DNA of 64,000 nucleotides from Verrucomicrobiota bacterium (GCA_039818205.1 JBCBUK010000008.1:128001-192000); one strand, 5' to 3'. Counted from the stretch's first letter, positions 13,951 to 42,434 are shown. Numbers and translations: made by a program. The notes: a model not told the origin generated them from the letters alone.

Positions 13951-16098
13951 ATGGAATCCACGAGTAACCACACACTCCTCTCGGAATTCACGGCCGCCAC
14001 CTACGACGAATGGCGGACCGCAGCCGAAAAACTACTCAAGGGCGCACCGTTTGATAAAATCATGCGGACGCCGACTCCCGAAGAAATTACGCTCGAGCCA
14101 ATCTACCGTCGCGAAGACTTAGATTCAGTGCCGGCAGCGAGTACTCTACCGGGTCAGAACGGTTTTACCCGGGGGGGCAATGCTGGAGGTTATCGTGAGG
14201 AGCCCTGGAAAATCGCGCAGGAACTTCCCTACGGTGAGCCCGCTGAGTTCAACCAAGCAGCGTTACATGATCTCAGTCGCGGTCAGGATTCATTAAACAT
14301 AATTTTTGATATCGCTACCCTAAAAGGACTGGATCCTGATCATGCCGCCGATGGCGAAGTTGGCGCTTGTGGTCTTTCGGTGGCCAGCTTGCCCGATTTG
14401 CGACGAGCCCTAAAAGGGGTTTATCCAAATGCGATTCCAATCTATTTTCAAAGCGGATGCTCCGGCCTTGCTATGCTAGCCCTGTTCCGCGCGTGGCTGA
14501 AAGAAAAACGCGACCTAGACCTAAGCGAGATCCGTGGAGCCATGGGGATCGACCCGCTAGCAATGTTGGCCGCCGCGGGCAGCCTTCCCGCGTCACTTCC
14601 TCATATCTATGATGAAATGACATGCGCAACGAAAACCTGCCGCGAGGAGACTCCGAGGTTTCTTGCCGTCGGGGTGAATACGATGCATTACCATAGTGCC
14701 GGTGCCAACGCTACCCAAGAGATTGCGATCGCGCTGGCCACCGGAGTTGAATACCTGCGTGCCCTCACGGATCGTGGCATGGCGGTTGACGATGCTTCCA
14801 AGCAAATTCGATTTACGCTTTCAATTGGACCGAACTTCTTCATGGAGATCTCTAAGTTTCGAGCCTTTAGGCAGCTCTGGTCCAACGTAATTGAGGCACT
14901 TGGGGTTTCGGTTGATTCCGAAAGTATCAACCTGCACGCGCGGACCGGATTACACAACAAAACACGGAATGATCCCTATGCGAATATGCTGCGGACAACA
15001 ACCGAAGCATTGGCTGGTGTTATTGCTGGCGTAGACAGTCTGTGCGTCGGCAGCTTCGATGAAATCATCCGGGTGCCCAATGAGTTTTCTCGGCGCGTTG
15101 CGCGCAACACCCAATTAATTCTGCAGGAAGAGTGCGAACTCACCTCAGTTATTGATCCTGCAGGCGGCTCCTGGTTTGTCGAGAACCTCACTCAAGAAGT
15201 CGCTCAGGAAGCGTGGAAAACATTTCAAGGAATTGAAGCCAGTGGCGGAATGAGTTCTGCGCTAAAGAGTGGTTTCATCCAGAAACAAATTGCGACTACT
15301 GAAGCGAAGCAAACAAAGCTCGTTGGCCAACGCCGAGTCGCGCTTGTTGGGACAAATCAGTATCCCAATCTTGGCGAAGTGCCCCTTGAGGTAACGCTAC
15401 CCGACTACAAAATCCTGCGAAAACGCCGCGCCAACGAATCGACCAGCTTCCGTCTTTCCGCGGAATCGGATATCGATTCGCAGGTCATCGGTCAACTCGC
15501 GGAGATACAAACATGCAGTTACTCCGAACTTATTCCAAAATCGATATTGGCCGTTTCCTCTGGAGCCACCCTGGGCGAATTGACCCGTACCATTAGGACT
15601 CGAGATATCGGTAAGACAGTCGAGGTTGATCCTCTCCCCAACCGTCGCCTTGCCGCGATGTACGAGGAGCTTCGGGCAGCTTCACTCGACTACCAGAAGG
15701 CCAACGGAAATTCCCCTCAGATTTTCCTCGCAAATATCGGAGCGCTTCGCCGACACAAATTGCGAGCAGACTTTACCCGAGCCTTTTTTGCAACTGGAGG
15801 TTTCGAATGCATTTATTCTCCGGGCTTCACCGATGCTGGATCTGCATCGCAGGCATTTGTCGATTCCGGTGCAGAGATCGCAGTTATTTGTGGCACCGAC
15901 GACGACTACATCGAAAGTGTGCCGACCTTTGCCGCGGCCATAAAAGAGGCAGCGCCCACCGCATCTGTGATACTTGCTGGATTCCCCGGAGAAAAAGAAG
16001 CGACCTACCGCGAAGCAGGTCTCGACGATTACATATTCGTCAAATCAGACAACTACGCAACCAACCGAAGTTACCTCGAGAAACTAGAGGTATTATAA
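13951..16098 (+). CDS. mutA: Methylmalonyl-CoA mutase small (non-catalytic) subunit
   Basis: EISKFRAFRQLW, DPYANMLRTTTE, ARNTQLILQEE and DPAGGSWFVE motifs; C-terminal domain lacks DxHxxG. Confidence 0.9.
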   Translation: MESTSNHTLLSEFTAATYDEWRTAAEKLLKGAPFDKIMRTPTPEEITLEPIYRREDLDSVPAASTLPGQNGFTRGGNAGGYREEPWKIAQELPYGEPAEFNQAALHDLSRGQDSLNIIFDIATLKGLDPDHAADGEVGACGLSVASLPDLRRALKGVYPNAIPIYFQSGCSGLAMLALFRAWLKEKRDLDLSEIRGAMGIDPLAMLAAAGSLPASLPHIYDEMTCATKTCREETPRFLAVGVNTMHYHSAGANATQEIAIALATGVEYLRALTDRGMAVDDASKQIRFTLSIGPNFFMEISKFRAFRQLWSNVIEALGVSVDSESINLHARTGLHNKTRNDPYANMLRTTTEALAGVIAGVDSLCVGSFDEIIRVPNEFSRRVARNTQLILQEECELTSVIDPAGGSWFVENLTQEVAQEAWKTFQGIEASGGMSSALKSGFIQKQIATTEAKQTKLVGQRRVALVGTNQYPNLGEVPLEVTLPDYKILRKRRANESTSFRLSAESDIDSQVIGQLAEIQTCSYSELIPKSILAVSSGATLGELTRTIRTRDIGKTVEVDPLPNRRLAAMYEELRAASLDYQKANGNSPQIFLANIGALRRHKLRADFTRAFFATGGFECIYSPGFTDAGSASQAFVDSGAEIAVICGTDDDYIESVPTFAAAIKEAAPTASVILAGFPGEKEATYREAGLDDYIFVKSDNYATNRSYLEKLEVL

Positions 16099-16137
16099 GT
16101 AACTGCTTACAACCGAAAACATAATCTATTTCTATTG

Positions 16138-18312
16138 ATGAAAAATATTGACTTCTCCACTTTGGATTACAAAGCGCTCAGCGAAATCGGGAATATGGAG
16201 CAATGGCAGCAGGCGATCGAAGAATCGACCAACAAATCATTGGATGATCTCACGTTGGATACAATGGAGCAGATTCCAGTCAAACCGCTCTATACTGCGG
16301 AAGATTACTCAGGTATGGAGCATCTAGATTTCACCGCTGGCCTCCCACCGTACTTGCGCGGACCCTATGCAACCATGTATGTATTCCGCCCCTGGACGGT
16401 CCGCCAGTATGCTGGGTTCTCGACCGCGGAAGAATCCAATGCGTTCTACCGCCGAAATATCGCGGCCGGTCAACAAGGGCTATCGGTGGCATTTGACCTG
16501 GCGACCCACCGTGGATACGACAGCGATCACCCGCGGGTCGTCGGTGATGTCGGCAAGGCTGGAGTCGCAATCGATTCAATTGAGGATATGAAAGTTCTCT
16601 TTGATCAAATCGACCTTTCTAAAGTCTCGGTTTCGATGACTATGAACGGCGCTGTGATCCCGGTCTTGGCTTTCTATATTTTGGCGGGCATGGAACAAGG
16701 CTGTTCACTGGATCAACTTGCCGGGACGATTCAAAACGACATTCTGAAGGAGTTCATGGTGCGGAACACTTACATATACCCACCGGCTCCATCGATGCGG
16801 ATCATTGGAGATATTTTCGAGTATACTTCTAAAAACATGCCGAAGTTCAACTCGATATCGATCTCCGGATACCACATGCAAGAAGCAGGAGCGACGGCCG
16901 ACCTTGAAATGGCCTATACGCTCGCCGATGGGCTCGAATACCTGCACACGGGCGTGAACGCCGGGCTCGATGTGGATGCCTTCGCGCCCCGTCTGTCGTT
17001 CTTTTGGGCAATCGGCAAAAACTTCTTTATGGAAGTTGCGAAGATGCGGGCAGCAAGATGCCTCTGGGCCAAGCTGGTTCAGCAGTTTAATCCTAAAAAC
17101 CCGAAGAGTCTGGCTCTACGGACGCACTCTCAGACCTCCGGTTGGTCGCTCACCGAGCAGGATCCCTACAACAACGTCGTCCGCACTGCGATCGAGGCAT
17201 TTGCGGCAGCGTGTGGCCATACGCAATCATTGCATACCAACGCTCTCGATGAGGCGATTGCCCTCCCGACTGACTTTTCAGCACGCATTGCGCGAAACAC
17301 CCAGCTCTTCATCCAGGAAGAAACCGGCATGACGAATGTCATCGATCCCTGGGGCGGCAGCTATTACGTTGAGTCCCTGACCCATCAGCTAATGCAAAAA
17401 GCATGGTCACATATCGAAGAAGTTGAGGAGCTTGGAGGAATGACCAAGGCGATCGAGGAAGGCATACCAAAACTCCGTATCGAGGAAGCCGCTGCGCGGC
17501 GCCAGGCAAGAATCGACAGCAGTAAGGAAACGATTGTGGGCTTGAACAAGCACCGCCTTGAGCACGAGGATCCGCTTGAGATTCTCGATATAGACAACTC
17601 TGCAGTGCGCGACTCGCAGATCGCCCGGCTAAAGAAGCTGAAAGCAGAACGAGACAACGGCGCTTGCCGTTCAGCACTCGAAGCCATAACAAAATGCTCG
17701 GAGTCGGGTGAAGGCAATCTGCTTGAACTTGCGGTTGAAGCTGCGCGGCAACGAGCAACCCTTGGAGAAATTTCCGATGCTATGGAAAGTGTCTTCGGGC
17801 GCTACAACGCAAAAATCCGCTCGATTTCTGGCGTCTATGCGAAAGAATTTGGTGAGAACATGAACATTAGCAGTGTCAGCATGCTCGTCGAGCAGTTCGA
17901 AAAGGAAGAGGGCCGGCGCCCGCGGATCATGATTGCAAAGATGGGTCAAGACGGCCACGACCGTGGCGCGAAAGTTGTTGCCACCGCCTATGCCGATCTT
18001 GGATTTGATGTCGACATCGGCCCACTGTTTCAAACTCCAGAAGAAGCGGCACGTCAGGCAGTTGAAAACGATGTACACATCGTCGCCATGAGTTCTCTGG
18101 CGGCCGGTCACAAGACTCTGCTGCCCCAGCTGGTGAAGGCACTAACGGATCTTGGTCGCGACGACATTATGGTGGTTTGTGGCGGCGTGATTCCGGCTCA
18201 AGACTACGAGTTCCTGCTCGAGAATGGTGCGAGCGCCATCTTTGGGCCTGGTACCGTCATTCCTGAATCGGCGCGCAAGATTTTGGAACTACTCCTAGAA
18301 GGAAACGAATAA
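16138..18312 (+). CDS. mutB: Methylmalonyl-CoA mutase catalytic subunit (adenosylcobalamin-dependent)
   Basis: [13 protein letters not shown] (Tyr typical of methylmalonyl-CoA specificity), [12 protein letters not shown] and [11 protein letters not shown]12-binding motif. Confidence 0.97.
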
Positions 18313-18331
18313 ACTAAGAATTGAGCACATC

Positions 18332-18721
18332 ATGGACACGCTGGAAATTCTCATTCAATCAAAGAAAGCAAACCCCGACCTGGCTCACGATGTTGTTTCG
18401 GCCGCAGCAGCGTGGCTGAATAAGGAACTCCGTTCCGCGGGTGTGAGCTATCACCTTGCCGACAGCGAGCATGACTTCTGTGGCTACGCAATGTTTCAGT
18501 TTCATCGAACCTGGAAAGGAACCGACATCACCCTCTTTATAAAAATAGCGGAAGTCCGCGAAACGCCCTATGTGTTCGCCGACATTCGCGTTCGAGAACA
18601 AGAGGAAAACGTGCTCTTCCCGTTTTTTGGTGAGATCGGCTCGGACGAAGGTAAAGAGATCATTCTCAATTACCTTGCGGACTTCCTGTTAAGCGTAGAG
18701 GCTAACGGACACGATCAATAG
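18332..18721 (+). CDS. Hypothetical protein between mutB and meaB
   Basis: 129 aa ORF 19 nt after mutB, co-oriented; no motif recognised. Confidence 0.7.
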   Translation: MDTLEILIQSKKANPDLAHDVVSAAAAWLNKELRSAGVSYHLADSEHDFCGYAMFQFHRTWKGTDITLFIKIAEVRETPYVFADIRVREQEENVLFPFFGEIGSDEGKEIILNYLADFLLSVEANGHDQ

Positions 18722-18796
18722 TTGAGTAATTTTTCACTCCAAGATTCAACGCAACTATCGTAGCAATGCCTGGATGCCTGGCAGCGATCATAAATC

Positions 18797-19888
18797 ATGG
18801 CAGTTGAACGACATCCTACTGAATGGACTCCGGGTGATGATCACCATGGGGCATTCAATACTGAAGTCATGTCAGGGATCTCTTCACCCCAAACGACCAA
18901 AGCGCACTCAAAGCGTCGTAAAAAGCTCTCCGCAGACGAGGCAGTTGACGGCGTTCTATCGGGTAACCGAACAATCTTAGCCCGCGCAATCACTCTCGTA
19001 GAAAGCAGAAATGAACAGGACCAGAAAACAGCACGCGAGGTTCTCCGTCGTTGCCTTCCGCACGCCGGGAAAGCAAAACGCGTAGGAATCACGGGAACGC
19101 CGGGAGCCGGGAAAAGTACCTTTATCGAATACCTCGGGTTGCAACTTTGCAATGCAAACCAACGTGTAGCAGTTCTCGCAGTCGATCCGACCAGCTCTCG
19201 CAGTGGCGGTAGTGTTCTCGGGGACAAGACGCGCATGGAGGAATTGACACGGCATGAGAATGCGTTCATCCGCCCTTCCCCCTCGGGCGGTACGTTAGGA
19301 GGAGTTGCCGCAAAATCCCGCGAAGCTATGCTGCTGTGTGAAGCGGCCGGCTACGCTGTTATCCTGATCGAGACCGTTGGCGTCGGCCAAAGCGAGATTG
19401 CCGTCCGCTCAATGGTAGACTTTTTTCTACTCTTACAAATTGCTGGTGGTGGAGATGAGCTCCAAGGCATAAAAAAAGGCGTCATCGAAATGGCCGATGC
19501 AATCGCCGTCAACAAAGCTGATGGCGACAATTTGCGGAAGGCTAAAATGGCCTGCGTTGAGTATAAACGCGTCTTGCACTATTTATCTCCATTTACGCCG
19601 GACTGGACTCCGACAGCACTAACCTGCTCCGCACAAACGGGCGAGGGAGTGGAGGAGATTTGGCAAATGGTATCCGACTTTTGCGCTATACTTGAAAAAA
19701 ATGGCGCCTTAGACCAGATTCGCTCACAACAGAATCGCCAATGGCTGCATAGTTTGCTCAAAGAAGCGGTGTTGCAAAAATTCTTCTCGCAGCCCTCGGT
19801 TTGCCAGAATCTACCTGTCATCGAGCAGCAGGTCGAGCGAGGCGAGTTGCCTGTTGTTGAGGCGGTTGAAAAGGTTTTGTCTCTTTAA
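18797..19888 (+). CDS. meaB: Methylmalonyl-CoA mutase-associated GTPase MeaB
   Basis: GITGTPGAGKST, AVDPTS..SGGSVLGDKTRM, ETVGVGQSE, GDELQGIKKG and NKAD motifs. Confidence 0.97.
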   Translation: MAVERHPTEWTPGDDHHGAFNTEVMSGISSPQTTKAHSKRRKKLSADEAVDGVLSGNRTILARAITLVESRNEQDQKTAREVLRRCLPHAGKAKRVGITGTPGAGKSTFIEYLGLQLCNANQRVAVLAVDPTSSRSGGSVLGDKTRMEELTRHENAFIRPSPSGGTLGGVAAKSREAMLLCEAAGYAVILIETVGVGQSEIAVRSMVDFFLLLQIAGGGDELQGIKKGVIEMADAIAVNKADGDNLRKAKMACVEYKRVLHYLSPFTPDWTPTALTCSAQTGEGVEEIWQMVSDFCAILEKNGALDQIRSQQNRQWLHSLLKEAVLQKFFSQPSVCQNLPVIEQQVERGELPVVEAVEKVLSL

Positions 19889-29346: not shown

Positions 29347-29377
29347 TTGTTAAGCCAAAAATTGAATTGGTTAACAA
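29347..29377. promoter_or_regulatory. BirA-type biotin operator (bioO)
   Basis: TTGTTAAG-N15-GTTAACAA versus the known consensus TGTTAAC-N15-GTTAACA; directly upstream of bioA. Confidence 0.75.
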
Positions 29378-29548
29378 CTTGCGGTGATACCAAACACGGT
29401 TGAACTCCGACTCATTGGTCGATCTAAAATAACTCCCGTGAGGCGGAAATTTAGCTAAGTGCCGGGAAATTTAGAATTTGACAATAGACTGCCATTAGAA
29501 GTTTATCTCCTAATACAAGCACAGCCCAAATAAATTTAGACTTATTCT

Positions 29549-30883
29549 ATGCGCACACAACGAACCATCTTATCGGCTCTATTCGGTCTTACCCAGTTCG
29601 TTGCAGTGGGAAACTCTGGTGTCTATTCCCTTGGCCTTTCCGACAACGAGAACGTTCACGATTCTCCCATCCCTGGCTTTGTTGGCCCAGAGGGTGAAGG
29701 TATTGTACCAACGGAAGTCTCTGAGGATTCAAACGTCGTTAACCCCATTTTCCTGTCATGGGCAGACACCGTGATCGACTATTCTCCGGCTCTCGGAGAA
29801 GTCGCTCCGGGTTTTGAATCAGTTCGCGAGCCACTTTTCAAGGACCCTGCAGCCGCTCTAGGTCCTGTCACTGGGCTTCAAGAGTACGATGTGGTATCCC
29901 TGGGCGAGCTTAATGAAGCGTCGATCTTAGCCGGAGATCAACCGGGCATGTTGACGGTTGCTTTTTCGGAACCCATCGTCGATGGCACCGGAGCAGACTT
30001 TGTTATATTCGAAAACGCTATTATCCTATCAATTCTGGACACCGGAGGAGCCGGAATCGGCGGCATCTGGACTGAGCTTGCCTACGTCGAAGTTTCAAGC
30101 AATGGAACGGATTTTGCACGTTTTCCGGCGCATACTCCCGGGCTCAGCATCGTTGGCCCGTATGGCTCAAACGATCCACGAAATATCTACAATTTAGCGG
30201 GCAAACACGTAAACGCTGATGGCGACTCCTGGGGAACTCCCTTTGATCTCAGCGATCTTGAGGATCATCCACTGGTAGTTTCGGGCGATCTCGATCTAGA
30301 TCAGATAACCCAGATTCGCCTCATCGACATTCCCGGGAGTGGCGATTTCCTCGATGCGTTTGGAAACCCGATCTACGATGGCTGGATCACTTACGATACC
30401 GGTGGTGCAGATATCGAAGCCCTCGGAGCGATCAGCCAGAAACAAACCTTTGAGCGTTGGAACAGTAATCGCGGTTTTGAGCCGTTAGGCAATGACGATA
30501 ACGATCAATGGTGTCACCTCCAAGAATATGCGTTTGGCCTCGATCCAGGTCAGTTCGAACAGGGCAACATACCGGATCTTCAAGCCCAACCCGATGGGAA
30601 CTACACCTTGAGCTTTCCTCGAGACGAGCGGATAACCGATATCGACTACGTTGTTGAGCAACAAGGCACAAACTCCCCATCAAACAGCTGGACTGAAATT
30701 GCTCGCTTTTCAGGCTTCGAAGAGCCTGCTATTGACGACAGCGCTATTCTAACGCTAGAAATCAGCTCAACTGCTAACCAAGCCGCCATCGGCGTATTGC
30801 AAAAGATTACCTTGTTGTTGCCTCCCCCATCCGGCCCGGAGTTTGGAGTCTTTTATCGCATTAGATTGGAGGCAACTGAATGA
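29549..30883 (+). CDS. Secreted/cell-surface protein with Verrucomicrobia-type C-terminal domain
   Basis: Signal peptide; VVSLG...F.EPI.DG.GADF.IFEN...ELAYVEVSSNG.DFARFP...NLAGK...GTPFDL core; DDND...LQEYAFGLDP and terminal FYRIRL. Confidence 0.8.
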   Translation: MRTQRTILSALFGLTQFVAVGNSGVYSLGLSDNENVHDSPIPGFVGPEGEGIVPTEVSEDSNVVNPIFLSWADTVIDYSPALGEVAPGFESVREPLFKDPAAALGPVTGLQEYDVVSLGELNEASILAGDQPGMLTVAFSEPIVDGTGADFVIFENAIILSILDTGGAGIGGIWTELAYVEVSSNGTDFARFPAHTPGLSIVGPYGSNDPRNIYNLAGKHVNADGDSWGTPFDLSDLEDHPLVVSGDLDLDQITQIRLIDIPGSGDFLDAFGNPIYDGWITYDTGGADIEALGAISQKQTFERWNSNRGFEPLGNDDNDQWCHLQEYAFGLDPGQFEQGNIPDLQAQPDGNYTLSFPRDERITDIDYVVEQQGTNSPSNSWTEIARFSGFEEPAIDDSAILTLEISSTANQAAIGVLQKITLLLPPPSGPEFGVFYRIRLEATE

Positions 30884-31695
30884 ACAAGAAATCTGCGTTT
30901 ACACTAATCGAACTACTGCTCGGAGTAACCATCGTTGGTATTCTCGGAGCTTTGATTATTTCAGCGGTTTCCAGCGCCAGGGAACAAGCATTGGCGGCAG
31001 AGTCGACCAACAATATTCGTCAGCTGACATTGGCTAACCAAGCGTATGCCAGTGACCGTGGGCACTACGTTCCCTACGGAACGACATCGAACAACAACAT
31101 TCGCTGGCACAGCTCGCGGTCCAAGGGGGATTTTGATGGCCAAGGCGGCTACCTGAGCGACTACCTTGAAGGCGGACAAGTCCGCTATTGTCCGGTTCTC
31201 GAGGAGATGCCAAGAGATTCTTCGACACTACCATTTGACGCTGGAGCGGGTGGCTACGGCTACAATGACTTTTATCTGGGGCGGCCCCTACCCGACCAGG
31301 TTCCACCGCGTCAACGGGGTCCTCAACCAAAGGTTCCGCCTCGCGGCAACTGGATTGCAAACATCCCCGATCCAAGCCGAACGGTGATGTTTACTTCAAC
31401 AGCGATTGCCAGGGCTGGCGGCATCGAGGAGACGGATTTGGCGGCGCCCTTCCGGTCCGTGACGCGTTCTGGTTTGGGCGTGCCCATGACACCGACGGTG
31501 CATTTTCGATTCCAAGGCCAGGCGCTCGTTGCCTGGGCGGATGGGCATGTAACCATGGAGATTCCAAATCCAGACGCGCCCATTAAGCACAATGCCTACG
31601 GTGACGACAACGAGGCAAATTCCATCGGCTGGTTCGGTCCCATCGAGTGGAACGGCTATTGGAACCCGCGCTACGGCAACGGGGTCGCCTACTAA
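30880..31695 (+). CDS. Prepilin-type N-terminal cleavage/methylation (pseudopilin-like) protein, H-X9-DG family
   Basis: MNKKSA/FTLIELL leader with E5; NIRQL..A...YASD; CP; GYGYN; VAWADGHV. ATGA overlap with the upstream gene. Confidence 0.9.
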   Translation: MNKKSAFTLIELLLGVTIVGILGALIISAVSSAREQALAAESTNNIRQLTLANQAYASDRGHYVPYGTTSNNNIRWHSSRSKGDFDGQGGYLSDYLEGGQVRYCPVLEEMPRDSSTLPFDAGAGGYGYNDFYLGRPLPDQVPPRQRGPQPKVPPRGNWIANIPDPSRTVMFTSTAIARAGGIEETDLAAPFRSVTRSGLGVPMTPTVHFRFQGQALVAWADGHVTMEIPNPDAPIKHNAYGDDNEANSIGWFGPIEWNGYWNPRYGNGVAY

Positions 31696-40105: not shown

Positions 40106-42106
<2,001 letters not shown>

Positions 42107-42118
42107 CTAATGGTTTCC

Positions 42119-42216
42119 ATGTTTCCCTTCGTCGGCATTACCCGAATCAGGTTCGAAGGGTTCAACGAGCGGACGCATCGTCATCTCAGCCCTACGCGCA
42201 GGGCACCCCAAACTAC
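42119..42216 (-). ncRNA. TPP riboswitch (THI element)
   Basis: Minus strand GGGGTGCCC...GGGCTGAGA...ACCCTTCGAACCTGATTCGGGTAATGCCGACGAAGGGAA upstream of thiC. Confidence 0.95.
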
Positions 42217-42434
42217 GGAAAAAACGGTAACCGGACCTATCCCGGTTGCAACGGAAAAATCGTGCCTACGAGGGCATCAGCGACAAAAGAACAATCGCGG
42301 CAATGACCAAAAAAATTGCCTGCACAATCGGTGGAGCGAAATTATCCCTCTTTTTTGACTGGTTTTGCATTAATGAGTTAATCGGACTACTCGTTTGCCT
42401 CTTAAGGTCCTAACTGTAGGTTCTTCGATGTAAT

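Follow-up and report, generated by a model that had tools for sequence, protein, structure and literature searches.

The two overlapping genes at positions 29549-31695 of a 64,000-nucleotide stretch of DNA from a Verrucomicrobiota bacterium (GCA_039818205.1, JBCBUK010000008.1:128001-192000; hereafter the window) are, on balance, probably central to a system that scavenges vitamin B12 (cobamide): a BtuH-like protein, likely displayed at the surface, would serve as the binder, a pseudopilin would take the role of BtuB, and a Fur-family protein would repress the operon at a palindromic site. The locus is conserved and very probably cobamide-related, and the predicted role in capture is well supported by the modelled fold and the genomic context. 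That the pilin is the actual outer-membrane route for B12 is a more doubtful proposition, with prospects slightly short of even. The features on which the argument depends are the following:

29549-30883, + strand: likely secreted protein (predicted signal helix, BtuH-like domain and C-terminal Ig-like domain)
29618-30439, + strand: BtuH-like predicted cobamide-binding domain, residues 24-297 (structural matches and family profile)
30443-30880, + strand: C-terminal Ig-like domain (Ig-type matches; genome-wide profile)
30880-31695, + strand: DUF1559-type pseudopilin of a dedicated subfamily with the motifs RWH / GGYGYN / HFR / GWFGP (PF07963, PF07596, pilin fold)
29478-29495, no strand assigned: predicted palindromic operator core of the TTGRCA-N6-TGYCAA type (matrix rank 1 in the genome; 53 bp 5' of the start codon)

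The first open reading frame (ORF1, 29549-30883) encodes 444 aa and the second (ORF2, 30880-31695) 271 aa, both on the + strand, and their junction is an ATGA overlap, as described in an earlier note on this DNA. The same note had called the first protein secreted and acidic and the second type IV-pilin-like. We counted 68 D/E against 17 K/R residues in the former, whose signal peptide is predicted from a hydrophobic start helix, and found PF07963 and PF07596 over cut-off in the latter. The orientation of bioA and bioB likewise confirmed that the pair is divergent from the biotin genes, and the B12-dependent mutase cluster placed about 10 kb away corresponds to mutase/meaB genes at 13951-19888, at a distance of 9.7 kb.

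The BtuH-like domain of the first protein

The 444-aa protein had no Pfam or NCBIfam match and nothing in single-sequence PDB searches. The ESM Atlas returned unnamed clusters only, among which Bacteroidota clusters with DUF4465/DUF4430 gave a lead. Homologs numbered 988 among 8000 candidates scored. The nearest named ones belong to Ruficoccus and Cerasicoccus (46-54% identity), which would place the source genome in or near Opitutales.

An AlphaFold2 model built from 116 sequences (predicted local distance difference test, pLDDT, 92.8) opens with a hydrophobic helix (residues 2-21) and has two domains. When it was compared with 48,161 representative chains, residues 24-297 gave as best match residues 318-593 of BtuH2 (7BIZ_B; Z 12.6, root-mean-square deviation (rmsd) 3.2, 171 aligned) and as second the BtuH-like domain (H-domain) of BtuG1 (8BLW_B; Z 12.2, rmsd 3.6, 182 aligned); the next chain followed at Z 9.4, i.e. 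2.8 Z lower. The BtuG1 chain was also first in a second-look structural search, and its residues 393-480 were the top PDB sequence match of a 119-sequence domain profile (E 0.0042, 84 profile positions). The loose resemblance to BtuH-type B12-binding domains that the earlier note had proposed from the core SLG..F..PI.DG.G.DF..FEN..ELA.VEVSS.G is supported by the modelled fold. BtuH2 binds B12 through the matching domain (PMC8941943), and BtuG1 carries a copy of the BtuH domain (PMC10404256).

The B12-contacting residues of the BtuH domain that we considered were Gln333, Asn399, His476, Tyr510, Trp511 and Trp577. Asn156 of the 444-aa protein, invariant in 119/119 sequences, is aligned with the GN asparagine of 8BLW by the profile match, and the N-x-F spacing suggests that it corresponds to BtuH2 Asn399. 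We consider it highly likely that residues 24-297 bind cobamide.

The only cysteine of the protein is Cys322, and there is no N-terminal lipoprotein cysteine. Residues 326-444 gave Ig-type structural matches (Z about 7), and a profile of this C-terminal domain found 33 ORFs in the source genome, itself included, and in 28 of these the match ends at most 50 residues from the C-terminus. In 38/123 homologs a PEP-CTERM-like tail stands in place of the Ig-like domain, which is likely a generic surface-display or sorting domain. Many large proteins of this order end in this unnamed domain, a candidate lineage-specific secretion or anchoring signal. The H-domain itself is widely distributed, with 3220 representatives reaching E 0.001 or better; a 1024-aa homolog (L022) comes from a Methanosarcina assembly, in which its contig is 3.5 kb long, perhaps through transfer or contamination.

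Genomic context of the homologs

Of 581 confirmed matches in GTDB, the 80 best were taken as homolog loci for analysis. Rfam RF00174, the cobalamin riboswitch, was found upstream and on the same strand in 5/10 loci scanned. With our own riboswitch profile, built from 23 Rfam matches, we examined 53 non-seed loci with at least 2.5 kb of upstream sequence, counting riboswitches within 4.5 kb; one was present upstream in 32/53 loci against 3/54 in a downstream control. The opposite strand gave 1 match in 80 loci and reversed sequence 0. DUF4465 (BtuJ) genes were neighbours in 33/80 loci, at times fused to the H-domain, pilin genes in 43/80 and an unnamed PEP-CTERM protein in 18/80; btuF-like genes were also among the neighbours. 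In Coraliomargarita and Haloferula, B12 is a ligand of DUF4465 proteins (PMC13398666). A riboswitch or operator is kept in front, while the flanking genes vary, in Verrucomicrobiota, Planctomycetota, Lentisphaerales and Desulfobacterota.

The earlier note had named a lack of B12-related context among homologs as the outcome that would speak against its hypothesis; the enrichment of upstream cobalamin riboswitches and btu neighbours is strong, and the hypothesis was not refuted. The cobalamin-riboswitch setting that it ascribed to loci of the Planctomycetota-Verrucomicrobiota-Chlamydiota (PVC) group holds for the family of homologs and fails for the present locus, as none was found in the window or the genome. 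Two further suggestions were rejected. The biotin link is contradicted by the homolog loci (see below), and proximity to a B12-dependent mutase carries no weight as evidence for a B12 role, since mutase genes are not among the recurring neighbours of homologs.

In the order to which the source genome belongs, the H-domain was found in 35/121 genomes, 12 of which also gave a riboswitch above the cut-off when 25-53 candidates were scored in each. The riboswitch lies 1-4 kb upstream of the homolog in 11 of these 12, and in the twelfth the matches are at contig edges.

Some loci have other neighbours. The cyanobacterial H-domain loci L037, L038, L041, L044, L046, L047 and L052 have neither riboswitch nor pilin, and some cyanobacterial loci lie near COG0523-like and metal-binding ATP-binding cassette (ABC) genes, possibly reflecting another use of the domain. 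A DUF6580 membrane protein, a candidate inner-membrane B12 transporter, is encoded beside the riboswitch-led cassette in L011, L014 and L040.

The pseudopilin and its probable coupling to the predicted binder

The second protein carries the pilin N-methylation motif PF07963 (24.7 bits, cut-off 21.2), with TIGR02532 also over cut-off, and matches PF07596 (DUF1559; 27.1 bits, cut-off 23.3) over profile positions 2-49 only. A class III signal with Glu+5 and an N-terminal helix (residues 9-60 in the model) are present, and the RWH, GGYGYN and HFR motifs are conserved in 54 aligned homologs. The model (pLDDT 93.0) has a type IV pilin fold, the best match being 6XXD (Z 5.2), with the head otherwise unmatched. 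Among 36 ORFs with a prepilin motif in the source genome, it is the only member of its subfamily.

All 18 matches to this subfamily in the 121 genomes of the order adjoin an ORF1 homolog. The pairing of binder and pilin is more than chance, and a functional coupling of the two is very likely. In four family relatives (L018, L146, L147, L148) binder and pilin sit between a PEP-CTERM gene and trpS. These two genes are adjacent on contig C2 of the source genome, and the binder and pilin are elsewhere; the placement in the relatives implies that the present position results from a rearrangement which kept both genes and an operator together. Binder and pilin thus appear to have moved as a unit. 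The PEP-CTERM protein, which has no Pfam match, and a divergent Fur-family gene lie at G000:C2:250145-251750 (L285), directly before trpS; this upstream 'propeller-like' partner also gave no PDB sequence match.

The pilin has lower-scoring relatives, mostly at 75-117 bits, in families f47 (24/35 genomes) and f54 (9/19) of the phylum sample, whose genomes with such relatives have no H-domain gene and no BtuB-like receptor. In L021, L040, L068 and L220 the pilin or binder genes are broken over two frames, by decay or assembly error.

Alternation of pilin and receptor

A role of the pilin in transport, as distinct from its coupling to the binder, is argued from one line of evidence: its alternation with a receptor. 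The homologous operons have two layouts, one with regulator, binder, H-domain gene (H gene) and pilin, the other with regulator, binder, TonB-dependent receptor and H gene; L032 has both. By 'BtuB-like' we mean a receptor clade defined by B12-regulated loci, not by match to E. coli BtuB. The pilin subfamily was found in 16/121 genomes of the order and the receptor clade (over 400 bits) in 19. The 35 genomes with an H-domain divide into 15 with pilin only, 13 with receptor only, one with both and 6 with neither (p 3e-4).

A second receptor clade was missed by the first receptor profile (A3). A second profile (A8) was therefore built, all PF00593 proteins of 22 genomes were listed, and 38 loci were rechecked. 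No PF00593 match at all was found in 5/16 pilin genomes of the order, and among the rechecked loci G114 was the sole pilin genome whose receptor belongs to a btu operon. The receptors of the other pilin genomes were without riboswitch or upstream operator, one site in L274 reaching 15.4 bits and falling below the 16-bit bar; neither profile matched an ORF in 4 of the rechecked loci.

In a phylum sample of 221 genomes the H gene was present in 28, the pilin (at least 150 bits) in 20, adjoining an H gene in 17, and either receptor clade in 78. The 28 H-gene genomes comprise 14 with pilin only, 9 with receptor only, 3 with both and 2 with neither (p 0.0015), or 13, 8, 2 and 0, respectively, when five genomes shared with the order sample are left out. 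In the 9 receptor-only genomes the receptors are encoded directly upstream of the H gene. Capture without a TonB receptor, as the earlier note had it, therefore holds as a genomic pattern in both samples.

A predicted palindromic operator and a Fur-family paralog

No cobalamin riboswitch was found in the window or in the source genome (150 of 212 candidates scored; best E with our own profile 0.49), and Rfam gave 0 matches on 8 riboswitch-less relative loci. The upstream regions of riboswitch-less loci share the palindrome TTGRCA-N6-TGYCAA. A matrix trained on 15 sites from other genomes scored the site at 29478-29495 with 22.0 bits, rank 1 in the 4.85-Mb genome; the rank-3 site lies between the Fur-family gene and the PEP-CTERM partner. 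What the earlier note overlooked is that the source copy, which has no riboswitch, carries a conserved predicted operator. The left arm of the palindrome reads TTGACA, but a sigma-70 scan detected no promoter there.

The strict palindrome pattern, searched over 35 genomes, gave both-strand matches only in riboswitch-less ones. In relatives it precedes H operons, DUF4465, btuF-like and receptor genes and the CobA/BtuR adenosyltransferase gene, with a site in L160 inside an unrelated ORF. The 35 extended loci divide into 22 with operator only, 9 with riboswitch only, none with both and 4 with neither, and outside the training set the operator is present in 12/16 riboswitch-less loci. It is lineage-restricted, being found in 1 of the 80 GTDB loci.

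A Fur paralog scoring at least 100 bits occurs in 23/23 riboswitch-less genomes (20/23 at 120 bits) and in 0/12 riboswitch genomes. In genomes without an H gene, the Fur gene adjoins operator and receptor in 5/20 fetched Fur loci and metH in 1. Co-location and co-distribution point to the Fur paralog as the repressor, and in the source genome this protein (G000:C2:251337-251750) is likely to bind to the palindrome and to sense B12 or cobalt status.

B12 requirement of the source genome and the proposed mechanism

The source genome (99.97% complete, 4.85 Mb) encodes MetH and a B12-dependent mutase. Neither MetE nor CobS was found, CobQ was not over cut-off (as it was in 2/35 genomes), and DUF4465 was lacking. 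No BtuB-like receptor was detected by the two receptor-clade profiles; the two PF00593 proteins, of 917 and 1135 aa, scored at most 65 bits with both and have no operator or riboswitch. Since there are B12-dependent enzymes and neither synthesis genes nor a BtuB-like receptor were detected, the genome likely must import B12 without a recognisable BtuB. It has 4 full secretins and 13 T2SSE-family ATPases. Its best match to the btuF genes of riboswitch-led cassettes is an open frame at G000:C2:524830-526701 (L286) that combines an HlyD-type membrane fusion protein with a BtuF-like periplasmic binding domain and has no operator upstream.

In the mechanism we propose, low B12 would lift repression of the operon by the Fur-family protein at the palindrome. 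The binder would be exported, held at the surface and bind B12, while the pilin would be processed and built into one of the genome's type II secretion system (T2SS) or type IV pilus machines. Retraction of the fibre through a secretin might then bring B12, or the B12-loaded binder, into the periplasm, where the BtuF-like domain would receive the vitamin.

Points against the proposal and alternative explanations

A number of observations weigh against this proposal. As regards the fold, identity to BtuH is just 16-20% with an rmsd above 3 A, and the sandwich is of the CBM32/discoidin type, with many neighbours at Z 8-9. 7BIZ was not found by sequence, phmmer and the full-length profile found no BtuH, and Foldseek placed 8BLW 14th, the two-domain model being uninformative there. 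As regards context, 21/53 loci show no upstream riboswitch, including 7 cyanobacterial loci also without pilin, and in the source genome the PEP-CTERM partner no longer lies upstream of the pair and is found on another contig. No T2SS or pilus assembly gene, secretin or motor lies inside the cassette, and no B12-specific inner-membrane permease was found in the source genome, where the sole BtuC-like match is in a haem-type locus. Exclusion of pilin and receptor is imperfect (L032, G114, G138 and G185 hold both), the alternation counts include kin that are not independent, the cut-offs of 400, 150 and 100 bits were placed at score gaps after the scores were known, and 5-10 receptor candidates were scored per genome. 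The rank-2 matrix site is inside an unrelated ORF, and 20 shuffled matrices gave 0-2 sites at 20 bits against 3 for the real one. Finally, riboswitch-less genomes supplied the seeds of the Fur profile, and among its lowest-scoring positives (family f8, 107-115 bits) there is a probably Zur-like one next to an ABC-3 metal permease.

The main rival to an import role is display: B12 capture would be as proposed, with the pilin secreting or displaying the binders (as a substrate-specific minor T2SS pseudopilin) or holding B12, and uptake proceeding through another pore or in bulk. Export is a real need, as the binder shares its C-terminal domain with about 30 proteins of the genome and 38/123 homologs have the PEP-CTERM-like tail; the cassette's want of secretin and motor and the genomes with both pilin and receptor also fit this explanation. 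Yet receptor operons have the same binders and the same export need, and the pilin is missing from all receptor-only genomes, 9 in the phylum sample and 13 in the order sample; in addition, certain aromatic and glycine residues peculiar to the pilin head are invariant. We regard display as unlikely, while giving it real weight. Another alternative accepts the surface protein and changes its ligand: the cassette would have been recruited to another metal or cofactor, with the Fur paralog as a Zur or cobalt sensor and the surface protein scavenging zinc or cobalt in the manner of the PEP-CTERM exoprotein ZepA. PVC ZepA genes adjoin Fur-family genes read as Zur (PMC10957091), the source locus lacks a riboswitch, and one weak Fur match is beside the ABC-3 permease. 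The other operator targets are nevertheless B12 genes (CobA/BtuR, DUF4465, btuF-like, receptor), no zinc-uptake gene was evident among the genome's top matrix sites as judged from N-terminal sequence only, and the 444-aa protein shows 41-54% identity to its homologs whether these are led by a riboswitch or by an operator. We regard such a recruitment as quite improbable.

If, on the other hand, the domain were a carbohydrate-binding module, the pair might be one of many PVC glycan-attachment pilin loci, its B12 context an inherited neighbourhood. CBM32/discoidin domains do occupy ranks 3-50 (Z 7-9.4), 36 ORFs of the genome have the prepilin motif, and the Akkermansia MUL2 pilin loci serve glycan foraging (PMC13174399). 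BtuH, however, ranks above every carbohydrate-binding module, and the riboswitch or operator stays in front across four PVC and other groups while the flanks change, so that we consider a glycan role very improbable. Least credible of all is that the pair belongs to a divergent regulon of the biotin operon and scavenges biotin. It lies 171 bp from the bioA ORF, and a BirA-like inverted repeat is found at 29348-29376. This repeat, at the bioA start, resembles a BirA operator and is presumably part of the biotin operon. The biotin explanation is refuted by synteny: bioB, bioF and bioD occur in 0/115 homolog loci, with one 39% aminotransferase match 5 kb away, and a same-genus locus (L143) shares aroQ/pgpA/pgsA but has no bio genes.

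Relation to known systems and significance

The cobamide-scavenging cassette that we favour is closest to the Btu systems of Bacteroides. The predicted fold of residues 24-297 is that of BtuH2 (BT1956, 7BIZ) and the BtuG1 H-domain (8BLW) of Bacteroides thetaiotaomicron, with a weak profile match via the DF...N motif, and B12-regulated operons with DUF4465/BtuJ and a predicted surface location are further common traits. Unlike these proteins, to which it is 16-20% identical, the 444-aa protein lacks the lipoprotein cysteine, and its H-domain is N-terminal, with an Ig-like or PEP-CTERM tail in the family, whereas theirs is C-terminal and preceded by PKD domains. In the gut, btuH lies in one operon with btuB in more than 80% of cases (PMC8941943); here, by contrast, the gene is paired with a pseudopilin in a genome without a BtuB-like gene. 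Like the BtuB-BtuG-BtuH-BtuJ loci of Bacteroides, the homologous loci have riboswitch, DUF4465, H-domain, btuF and, in one variant, a TonB-dependent receptor, but the pilin variant lacks the receptor, and much of the order uses a DNA palindrome, not RNA. The cassette would therefore be a Btu-type scavenging variant with possibly a new outer-membrane step and possibly a new kind of regulator.

The pilin shares the N-methylation motif, Glu+5, long helix and pilin fold with the DUF1559 (SBP_bac_10) pseudopilins of PVC bacteria and with type IV pilins and GspG. It differs from them in that its match to DUF1559 is confined to the first 49 of 268 positions, in its 200-residue head, which has no close solved relative (best Z 5.2), and in being tied to one partner gene and one regulon. 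By analogy, the nearest precedent for a pilin in uptake is MUL2 of Akkermansiaceae, where verrucomicrobial pilin-like genes are needed for substrate uptake without SusC (PMC13174399); MUL2 differs in its pilin family, in including PilM, in its mucin/glycan substrate and in being proposed for attachment. As with the Fur-family regulators Fur, Zur, Mur and Nur and the ZepA zinc exoprotein system, a PF01475 protein is encoded beside PEP-CTERM surface-protein genes and a palindromic site, but the predicted regulon is cobamide uptake and adenosylation. We found no B12-regulon Fur paralog in the literature searched, nor in passages of a metal-sensing review (PMC11672702). The literature searched contained no description of the cassette or the operator either, although supplementary regulon tables could bear on the novelty of the latter.

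These results bear on two questions: by what means PVC bacteria that possess few TonB-dependent receptors acquire scarce molecules of large size, and what role their many DUF1559 pilin-like proteins have. The cassette assigns one such pilin a proposed ligand and partner, and the fact that this pilin and a BtuB-like receptor alternate one for one suggests that B12 has a second route across the outer membrane. With the operator comes a candidate protein that would regulate B12 genes, for which riboswitches are the usual means. Operator control would also explain why B12 uptake genes escape riboswitch scans in these Verrucomicrobia of marine and fresh waters, a point of relevance to models of competition for B12. 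In its most general form, our hypothesis states that PVC bacteria import B12 across the outer membrane without TonB, by means of a ligand-specific DUF1559 pseudopilin, a retractile pilus, a secretin and BtuH/BtuJ-type binders, and that in one order of Verrucomicrobiota a Fur-family repressor reading B12 or cobalt status has taken the place of the riboswitch. We put this forward tentatively, as a possibility with rather more against it than for it. If true, the hundreds of orphan DUF1559 pilins would constitute a substrate-specific receptor repertoire in place of TonB-dependent transporters.

Elsewhere in the window, a thiamine pyrophosphate (TPP) riboswitch lies at 42107-42220 (- strand), upstream of a thiC-like gene at 40106-42028, which is an ordinary arrangement.

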